This document shows positions 59,691 through 61,672 of a stretch of 64,000 bases of DNA, piece by piece. The translations under genes and the position numbers were made by a program. The notes under the pieces are model-generated. The model was not told the origin of the DNA and ran no database searches. It saw only the letters and a program-made list of their open reading frames with translations. This DNA comes from Gemmatimonadales bacterium (GTDB lineage: Bacteria > Gemmatimonadota > Gemmatimonadetes > Gemmatimonadales > GWC2-71-9). Location of the stretch: contig DATBFV010000098.1 in assembly GCA_036558345.1 (NCBI GenBank), forward strand, positions 11,513 to 75,512. The letters are read 5' to 3'. How positions within the stretch are numbered: the first letter of the stretch is position 1; every line of letters begins with the position of its first letter.

Positions 59691-61640
59691 ATGGCTGAGA
59701 AGATCATTGGCATTGACCTCGGGACGACCAACTCGGTCGTCGCCGTCATGGAAGGTGGCGATCCCGTGGTCATCCCCAACGCCGAAGGCGGGCGGACGAC
59801 CCCATCGGTCGTCGCCTTCACCAAGGACGGTGAGCGGCTCGTTGGGCAGGTCGCAAAGCGGCAGGCAGTGACCAACCCGCAGAACACGATCTTCTCCATC
59901 AAGCGATTCATGGGACGGCGCAACGAGGAAGTGACCGAGGAGACCAAGCGCGTCCCCTATAAGGTCGTCCGGGGTCAGAACAGCCTGGCGTCCGTCGAGG
60001 TCGGCGGGAAGCAGTACACGCCGCCCGAGATCTCCGCGATGATCCTCCAGAAGATGCGGCAGACCGCCGAAGACTACCTCGGCCACAAAGTCGAGAAGGC
60101 GGTCATCACCGTACCCGCGTACTTCAACGACTCCCAGCGGCAGGCAACCAAAGACGCCGGCAAGATCGCCGGACTCGACGTCGTCCGAATCATCAACGAG
60201 CCGACGGCCTCCGCTCTCGCCTACGGGCTCGATAAGAAGAAAGAAGAGAAGGTGGCCGTTTACGATCTGGGCGGCGGCACCTACGACATCTCCATCCTCG
60301 AGCTCGCCGAAGGCGTGTTCGAGGTGAAAAGCACGAACGGCGACACCCACTTGGGCGGCGACGATTTCGACGCCCGGATCATCGAATGGCTGGTAGGCGA
60401 ATTCAAGCGCGATCAAGGCATCGATCTCTCCAAGGACCCAATGGCGCTGCAGCGACTGAAGGAAGCCGCCGAAAAGGCGAAGATGGAGCTGTCGACCGTC
60501 ATGCAGACGGAAATCAACCTGCCCTTCATCACGGCGGATCAGTCGGGTCCCAAGCACCTGAACCTGACGCTGACGCGCGCCAAGCTCGAGCAGCTCGTGG
60601 ACGACCTGGTGAAGCGGACGATTCCCCCCATGCAGCAGGCGCTGACCGACGCGGGGCTCAAGCCCAGCGACATCAACGAGGTGATTCTCGTCGGTGGGCA
60701 GACGCGCATGCCGAAGGTTCAGGAGATCGTGAAGAGCTTCTTCGGCAAGGAGCCCCATAAGGGCGTGAACCCCGATGAAGTCGTTGCAATCGGCGCCGCG
60801 ATTCAGGGTGGGGTGCTCGCGGGCGAAGTGAAGGACGTGCTGCTGCTCGACGTGACGCCCCTGTCGCTCGGCATCGAGACACTGGGTGGCGTGACGACGG
60901 TGCTCATTCCGCGCAACACGACGATCCCGACCAAGAAGTCAGAGACGTTCTCGACGGCGGAGGACAATCAGACGACTGTGGAGATTCACGTGCTGCAGGG
61001 CGAACGCCAGATGGCGCAGGACAACCGCACCATCGGCAAGTTCCAGCTCACGGGCATTCCACCCGCTCCCCGCGGCATTCCGCAAGTCGAGGTGACGTTC
61101 GACATCGATGCCAACGGCATCTTGCATGTCTCCGCCAAGGACAAGGCCACGGGCAAGGAGCAGAAGATCCGGATCGAAGCCTCGTCCGGATTGGGCGACA
61201 AGGACATTGACAAGATGGTGAAGGACGCCGAGGCCCACGCCGCGGAAGACAAGAAGCGGCGCGACGTTATCGAGCAGCGGAACCGGCTCGACAACATGGT
61301 CTATCAAGTGACCAAAGAGTCCAAAGAGTGGGTCGATAAGCTGGAGTCCGGGCTCAAGTCCCGCCTCGACGCGGCGATCCAGCAGTCCCAGCAGGCGCTC
61401 CGGAGCGGAAATGCTGACGAAATCAGCAAAGCGCTGGAGGAGCTCCAGCAGGCATATTCAGCAGCAGGGGCCTCGTTGTACGCTGCACGCGGCACCGCCG
61501 GGGCGGAAACACCGGGCGGCGAAGGAGCGGGGGCGCCGAAGGGCGGCGATGGCGGTGCCCAGGCCGGAACCGGGAAGCAGGAAAATGTGGTCGATGCGGA
61601 TTACGAAATCGTCGATGAGGATAAATCCAAGAAACAATGA
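59691..61640 (+). CDS. dnaK: molecular chaperone DnaK (Hsp70)
   Basis: [46 protein letters not shown], the substrate-binding domain and the C-terminal lid. 649 aa. Confidence 0.98.
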
Positions 61641-61672
61641 TCATTGATCAATGATCATTGATTATTGATCAA
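61635..61672. repeat. AT-rich 26-bp perfect palindrome embedded in five tandem TGATYAW heptamers
   Basis: CAATGATCATTGATCAATGATCATTG (61635-61660) equals its own reverse complement. Read from the dnaK stop it is TGATCAT TGATCAA TGATCAT TGATTAT TGATCAA (61638-61672). It contains four GATC sites. Confidence 0.9.

Follow-up and report, generated by a model that had tools for sequence, protein, structure and literature searches.

A heptamer-repeat hairpin between dnaK and htrA of a Gemmatimonadales bacterium is probably one copy of a dispersed intergenic repeat family

The closest described system to the element reported here is formed by the intergenic heptameric simple sequence repeats (SSRs) of Xanthomonas (GGGAATC) and Nostoc PCC 7120 (GGGGAYT), which number about 186 per genome, contain 2-26 units and lie mostly between co-directional genes, less than 50 bp from stop codons or overlapping them (Rehm et al. 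2015, PMC4692102). Their length and sequence vary strongly among close relatives at the same site, and in Xanthomonas about 70 loci consist of inverted pairs in convergent orientation that could fold into stem-loops; neither the function nor the origin of these SSRs has been explained, and polymerase slippage has been tentatively proposed (PMC4692102). As relayed by that paper, a 2007 report found heptamer SSRs to be over-represented in many bacterial genomes, and three tandemly repetitive heptanucleotides occur in Calothrix PCC 7601 (via PMC4692102). Here we analyse an array of heptamers lying between dnaK and an htrA/degP-type gene in a 64,000-nt stretch of DNA from a Gemmatimonadales bacterium (contig DATBFV010000098.1; the whole stretch is called the window). 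We consider it likely that this array is a copy of a family of heptanucleotide SSRs, hairpin-forming and dispersed across the lineage, that occupy very short intergenic spacers in soil Gemmatimonadales, and we place it within the broader intergenic heptameric SSR class, in a palindromic form and not in the G-quadruplex (G4) subfamily. It is not an operator or thermosensor specific to dnaK or htrA.

Cyanobacteria have short tandemly repeated repetitive (STRR) heptanucleotides, of which STRR1-3 were reportedly described by Mazel et al. in 1990, with TTGGTCA as an example; this unit, that of STRR2, is reportedly one base off TTGATCA, and the STRRs of heterocystous cyanobacteria reportedly run as direct arrays instead of folding back as palindromic hairpins. 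Repetitive extragenic palindromes (REPs) are short imperfect palindromes, dispersed and typically found at gene 3' ends or between cistrons, whose RNA hairpin can stabilise the upstream mRNA or attenuate read-through; they are G+C-rich, carry a conserved 5' GTAG-type head, are linked to RAYT transposases and have no internal 7-nt period. The same name, repetitive extragenic palindromes, is given to REP/BIME in PMC2817692. No description of heptamer-periodic repeats of the present kind in Gemmatimonadetes was found in the literature searched.

The sequence at 61635-61660, CAATGATCATTGATCAATGATCATTG, is identical to its own reverse complement, and the heptamers that run from the dnaK stop codon (TGA, 61638-61640; dnaK 3' end AAG AAA CAA TGA) to 61672 were recovered by TRF as period 7 with 4.9 copies (61638-61671) and also as period 14 with 2.6 copies. 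Both features, a perfect 26-bp palindrome and five TGATYAW units, had been called in an earlier inspection of the letters by themselves (the sequence-only reading) and are borne out. A single A separates the last heptamer from the GGGGG of the htrA Shine-Dalgarno (SD) sequence. A search of the window with TGATCAWTGATCA at up to two mismatches returned four overlapping matches at the array and one elsewhere, with 0.75 expected, and the array is a non-chance feature of the window. No other 38-mer of the 64 kb is as rich in A+T (29/38), in a genome of about 65% G+C; the G+C content of the array is 26%, which corrects the earlier figure of about 29 percent, and the array is without any G-run from which a G-tract or G-quadruplex could be built. 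CIRCE (TTAGCACTC-N9-GAGTGCTAA) has no match in the window at up to three mismatches, and HAIR (CTTGAGT-N7-ACTCAAG) has one chance-level match at the same threshold, at 42398 and far from the locus, in agreement with the earlier statement that the array is neither. No Rfam family matches; a sub-threshold microRNA match over the array (E = 0.69) was rejected.

An HtrA protein scan of species-representative genomes yielded 80 loci, all from Gemmatimonadota (L001-L080). The best match, L001, shares 95% amino acid and 85-90% nucleotide identity across the region, and its junction carries no array (TCTTAAAAGGGGG). In 36 of the 39 closest Gemmatimonadales loci, this nearest relative included, the dnaK stop codon directly abuts AAGGGGG, such junctions reading ...AAG AAG TCT TAA AAGGGGG-N5-6-ATG with a gap of 12-14 nt between stop and ATG. 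The remaining three loci carry arrays, of about 12 units in L012, where they form a long hairpin, six in L018 and two in L037, so that the number of units at this junction, designated site A, is 0, 2, 5, 6 or about 12. All four carriers, the window among them, show CAA or AAA followed by TGA in place of TCT TAA and have kept AAGGGGG. They are scattered in the HtrA tree and the DnaK tree alike, and the sister of the window in the HtrA tree, L001, is empty. Judged from these alignments, the dnaK-htrA array is a non-conserved, copy-number-variable insertion or expansion that has left the htrA ribosome-binding site intact. A single origin of the site A array was considered and is rejected, or at least is not simple, given that the carriers are polyphyletic and that similarity between the window and L018 flanks does not exceed the average. 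The sequence-only reading had presented the array as a dedicated cis-element of this junction and had named absence or lack of conservation in close relatives as the observation that would speak against it. Comparison of the dnaK-htrA gaps gave exactly this result, with L001 and 35 other close loci lacking the array and the three other carriers differing greatly in its length, and the repeat also occurs in many unrelated spacers; taken as a whole, the interpretation offered by that reading is partly supported. Within the same set, L014 and L015 share 5.1 kb at 99.7% identity although their labels, Gemmatimonadales and Vicinamibacterales respectively, place them in different phyla; a binning error in one metagenome-assembled genome (MAG) is the probable reason.

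Arrays of the (TGATCAW)n type occupy two further orthologous sites in about 19 relatives among the 80 loci, one convergent, between the ends of a gene for a 167-aa membrane protein and a CtaG-like gene, and one co-directional, between a 100-aa gene and the CtaG-like gene. A metagenome scan with the query TGATCAWTGATCAWTGATCA matched at least 120 contigs; the metagenome counts given from here on are among the matches listed. About 70 soil contigs of 0.60-0.68 G+C share the same array architecture, and the remaining contigs are low-GC and carry plain direct arrays. Clustering by flanks resolved the arrays of the relatives and the high-GC soil contigs into about 32 distinct, unrelated sites, whose neighbouring genes are functionally unrelated (MatE, HflX, a DinG-like helicase, an aminotransferase, a glucose/sorbosone dehydrogenase, a HAD hydrolase, an M20 peptidase, an FAA hydrolase and CtaG). 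The clustered sites fall between tandem genes in 16 cases, convergent genes in six and divergent genes in three, and open reading frames (ORFs) often terminate on a TGA within the array. Viral contigs gave no match to the commonest palindromic core.

Three side observations concern these contigs. Some arrays seem to abut the 3' ends of tRNA genes, as judged by eye from the flanking sequence. Five low-GC contigs (L166, L170, L110, L119 and L083; 0.40-0.49 G+C) carry very long direct heptamer arrays, several per contig and of up to about 30 units, built of TGATTAA, TGAACAA and TGATCAA. Contig L081 (Ga0137420_1345223, 4308 nt) has inverted arrays at 1562-1603 and 2711-2752 with ORFs mirrored between its halves; a transposon, the 1.1-kb segment bounded by the inverted arrays, was considered and rejected, since ORFs mirrored end to end point to a fold-back assembly chimera, possibly one promoted by the palindromic repeat.

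The arrays of the family have a regular architecture, in which A-type units (TGATCAA, TGTCCAA and others) make up the 5' arm and complementary T-type units (TGATCAT, TGGACAT and others) the 3' arm. The order of the spacer letters in the high-GC arrays is A-then-T in 43 and ATAT in 15, with none that is TA-only, and complementary units occur in matching numbers (42 TGTCCAA and 42 TGGACAT; 15 TGACCAA and 13 TGGTCAT). This fixed A-then-T layout and the pairing of complementary units indicate that each high-GC array is a hairpin, and the median predicted fold of the family, for the array with 21 nt on each side, is -26.7 kcal/mol. The ends of the arrays read GAATG...CATTC, with no GTAG-type head visible. 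Contigs L134 and L192, which are 98-99% identical, differ here by exactly one 7-nt unit; on this comparison, the family evolves by gain and loss of whole 7-nt units. Stop codons in all frames were considered as the driver of the family and rejected: TGATCAW arrays have TGA in every frame on both strands, and sister units such as AATGCGG are stop-free.

The spread of these arrays and their variability at site A bear directly on a further proposal of the sequence-only reading, namely that a dimeric or multimeric stress regulator of htrA uses the array as its operator; this can be generalised to a binding array for a global TGATCA-recognising protein. The perfect dyad symmetry, the tandem half-sites and the position directly upstream of the htrA ribosome-binding site would suit such a role, but the array is missing at all but three of the closest orthologous junctions, is absent from the nearest relative and varies from 2 to about 12 units among its carriers. 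Moreover, arrays adjoin unrelated genes, often between convergent ends where no promoter exists; no sigma-70-like htrA promoter is found on the plus strand in or after the array, for which reason an internal htrA promoter created by the AT-rich insert was also rejected; and a conserved promoter-like block sits upstream of dnaK instead. Non-conservation and the occurrence of the repeat in unrelated intergenic spacers leave the operator unsupported, and we regard it as very unlikely.

The block upstream of dnaK, at window positions 59595-59690, is strongly conserved and recurs in about 55 of the loci L001-L062. An inverted repeat, CTGCC-TTTTT-GGCAG, is followed in it by GGCAC/TG-ATGC-TTGCC and then by a conserved leader, GCATCAAATCCCTAYCAGGAGC; the second of these parts resembles a sigma-54 -24/-12 promoter (TGGCACG-N4-TTGCW). 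A consensus match by itself is not significant, with about 10 expected per 64 kb at two mismatches and three mismatches in the window copy; it is the conservation of the block that suggests RpoN-type control of dnaK, and perhaps htrA, in this order. The order-wide block upstream of dnaK together with the 12-nt gap in relatives suggests that dnaK and htrA normally form one transcript.

As RNA, the array is predicted to fold at 37 °C with -14.5 kcal/mol, against -2.6 +/- 1.8 kcal/mol for shuffled sequences (z = -6.6), the minimum free energy (MFE) hairpin spanning 61635-61667; the 26-nt palindrome alone gives -10.9 kcal/mol. It was previously suggested that this AU-rich stem might act as an RNA thermometer, hiding the htrA SD sequence in the cold and melting on heat shock. 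The stem does weaken with temperature, from -19.2 kcal/mol at 25 °C to -11.4 kcal/mol at 45 °C, and lies 6 nt upstream of the SD sequence, but the hairpin remains stable at 45 °C and its pairing is internal to the array. In neither the MFE structure nor the ensemble is the array a partner of the G-run at 61674-61678 or of the ATG; where these two are paired, it is with sequence outside the array that is also present in relatives, unlike the pairing of ROSE or fourU elements. Most relatives, furthermore, lack the element though their htrA SD sequence is identical. The SD sequence being unpaired with the array in the predicted ensemble, the thermosensor finds no support, and we consider it extremely improbable.

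A methylation-sensitive switch, acting through four clustered GATC sites, was likewise proposed. The four sites do lie within a span of 32 bp, all of them, and not three as first stated, in the form TGATCA. Across the window, however, GATC is at expectation (541 observed, 551 expected) and TGATCA outside the array is mildly under-represented (11 observed, 20.5 expected). The clustering follows from the repeat unit itself, and sister heptamers in like sites (AATGCGG, CGTGCGG and GGGCCTG) contain no GATC; we would give such a putative switch little chance. CTAG is strongly under-represented in the window (17 observed, 44 expected).

What the array does at this junction can be approached through its absence elsewhere. 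The dnaK stop and the htrA ATG lie 12-14 nt apart in relatives, and the two genes are therefore probably co-transcribed and translationally coupled. The insertion would stretch the gap to 43 nt and would set an AU-rich stem-loop with a moderately U-rich 3' flank directly after the dnaK stop codon. Its likely consequence would be modest and REP-like: the 3' end of dnaK would be protected to some degree and/or transcription would terminate in part, and coupling of the two genes would be looser, with htrA lowered relative to dnaK. On our analysis, a modest intercistronic-hairpin effect of this kind is most likely, and the array may equally be nearly neutral. The sequence-only reading had offered a hairpin in the RNA at which the dnaK transcript would end or be processed; this part is plausible and names the likeliest effect, but the property is generic to the repeat family and no stress-specific design. 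A simple terminator scan flags 61635-61660 on both strands, and complete termination is unlikely because the htrA SD sequence follows within 6-14 nt.

Several observations weigh against reading the array as an ordinary, functional member of this dispersed family. The window copy has an atypical spacer order, T-A-T-T-A, stands at the weak end of the family, and is the one copy in the 64 kb available from this genome, dispersal being seen in relatives and metagenomes. Its stem has 3 G-C pairs of 11, and the 3' flank in the MFE register, AUCAAAGG, holds no U-tract; in the register of the 26-nt palindrome the tail reads AUUAUUGAUC, again without the G+C-rich stem followed by a U-tract that a canonical terminator has. 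By these models the array would be a poor canonical terminator, at most a weak one, and the scan result a terminator-like match only. An apparent avoidance of divergent (promoter-only) spacers, 4/81 in the raw counts, becomes 3/25 after clustering of orthologous sites, against a background of 19%; it is not significant, and we do not claim it. Finally, the window and L018 arrays end alike at the 3' side, in an odd TGATTAT-TGAYCAA, without any special closeness of their flanks, and simple independent slippage does not account for this.

This last point leads to the origin of the arrays, and to a broader pattern in which the family is embedded. In the 0.93 Mb of the Gemmatimonadota loci L001-L080, period 7 is the commonest tandem-repeat period, with 87 arrays of at least three copies, compared with 25, 44 and 16 for periods 6, 8 and 9, and many of the period-7 arrays form complementary pairs of left and right arms. 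At the convergent gap, about 2.8 kb downstream of the htrA start, designated site B (L001-L053), the loci carry differing 7-periodic hairpins or none, the types being (AATGATC)n, (AATGCGR)n, (CGTGCGG)n, (GGGCCTR)n and (AATGTMG)n, with predicted folds of -20 to -75 kcal/mol (examples in Table 1). L005 and L007 have wholly different hairpins there despite 93-95% identity of the flanking genes, the replacement running exactly between the two stop codons.

Such replacement would be expected of a mobile or copy-pasted hairpin cassette (REP/RAYT-like, MITE-like or spread by gene conversion), which would have reached dnaK-htrA by insertion or recombination and not by slippage in situ. Many non-orthologous sites show one and the same mosaic, of outer TGTCCAA/TGGACAT and inner TGATCAW units, which fits such a cassette, as does the odd TGATTAT that the window and L018, among the polyphyletic site A carriers, have in the same position. 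However, there is no target-site duplication and no conserved terminal motif beyond GAATG...CATTC; no transposase was seen adjoining any array, no systematic transposase search having been made; the one apparent inverted pair, in L081, belongs to the fold-back contig; viral contigs are without matches; and the single-unit change between near-identical contigs shows that slippage does operate. We hold the cassette to be possible, though unlikely. As a proposal on origin, it can stand beside the functional reading favoured above, that of a dispersed SSR family with a modest hairpin effect.

More speculatively, heptamer-periodic hairpins may be a distinct and actively generated genome punctuation in Gemmatimonadota, in which cassettes of 7-nt units are repeatedly installed and swapped in the gaps between a stop codon and the next gene by a dedicated mechanism and serve as standard bidirectional terminators or mRNA-end protectors, the dnaK-htrA array being a recent installation. 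The arms of such cassettes would mostly be AATG-NNN (5') and NNN-CATT (3'), plus G+C-rich types, and candidate mechanisms would be a hairpin-specific transposase or recombinase, or templated fold-back synthesis in a 7-nt register. We consider this scenario doubtful.

At the neighbouring sites, arrays also touch the coding sequences themselves. In the empty state, seen in L001 (9620-9650), stop and start codons of the 100-aa gene and its CtaG-like neighbour overlap as GTGA; in L016 a 66-nt array (9589-9654) separates the two and supplies a new ATG. In L005 (8765-8861), the reading frame of the CtaG-like protein extends through the right hairpin arm, which adds a C-terminal tail of 17 residues. 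The window itself holds, at 15952-16027, a G+C-rich hairpin (-54.9 kcal/mol) that fills a gap between convergent genes; its arms have a period of about 10 nt (TGCCGCCTAA x 2.7), and this genome thus has periodic-arm hairpins with a period other than 7.

Table 1 Features of the dnaK-htrA junction in the window, and example gaps at site B (site B positions are those of the respective loci)
Feature	Position	Strand	Remarks
dnaK (Hsp70, 649 aa)	59691..61640	+	PF00012, E = 9e-272; last sense codon CAA and stop TGA inside palindrome/array
Perfect 26-bp palindrome	61635..61660	.	Two 12-nt palindromes CAATGATCATTG, spacing 14 nt
Five heptamers, head-to-tail: TGATCAT TGATCAA TGATCAT TGATTAT TGATCAA	61638..61672	.	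Probable (TGATCAW)n family copy
htrA Shine-Dalgarno GGGGG	61674..61678	+	Intact directly 3' of array; AAGGGGG-N5-6-ATG conserved in close relatives with or without array
htrA/degP-type serine protease (516 aa; Trypsin_2 and two PDZ)	61684..63234	+	Domain match; ATG at 61684
Site B gap examples	L005 8765-8861; L001 8779-8848; L002 8770-8851; L036 8913-9007		

Collectively, these findings remove a tempting annotation of a novel heat-shock operator or thermosensor for htrA. They also indicate that an AT-rich palindrome standing out in one of these high-GC genomes will usually belong to a repeat family. Of greater interest are the 7-periodic hairpins as a superfamily, whose members are rapidly replaced at fixed sites. 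The over-representation of intergenic heptamers has been noted since 2007 and is unexplained, and Gemmatimonadales offer an unusually clean case, with compact palindromes filling whole gaps, a single-unit change among near-identical strains and wholesale replacement of hairpins at about 5% divergence. Why the period is 7, and whether the arrays are products of slippage or mobile cassettes, thereby become testable questions. Because arrays give neighbouring genes stop codons, start codons and short C-terminal tails, they also matter for gene calling in MAGs.

In comparison with known systems, the window stem-loop is like an intrinsic terminator in standing directly after a stop codon, with an A-rich 5' flank (AAGAAA), a partly U-rich 3' flank (AUUAUUGAU) and a weakly bidirectional look, and the site B hairpins, like terminator hairpins, fill the whole gap between convergent genes; unlike an intrinsic terminator, the window stem has 3 G-C pairs and no clean U-tract. 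With REP/BIME the array shares the nature of an extragenic palindrome with a stable predicted stem-loop, whereas the present arrays are 7-nt periodic and have no GTAG-type head. Like the cyanobacterial STRRs, the family is tandem, heptameric, dispersed and mostly non-coding, and some of its arrays hold TGGTCAT units; among the matches listed, the STRR-like direct arrays are those of low-GC metagenome contigs and the palindromic arrays those of high-GC contigs. The likeness is closest to the Xanthomonas and Nostoc SSRs, with which the array and its family share head-to-tail 7-nt units, an intergenic position near stop codons, a variable number of units and the occurrence of inverted pairs. Those repeats are G-rich and have been studied as G-quadruplex formers, whereas the present array is AT-rich with a self-complementary TGATCA core, and its family, found in the phylum Gemmatimonadota, nearly always takes the form of one compact palindrome with a fixed A-then-T polarity.

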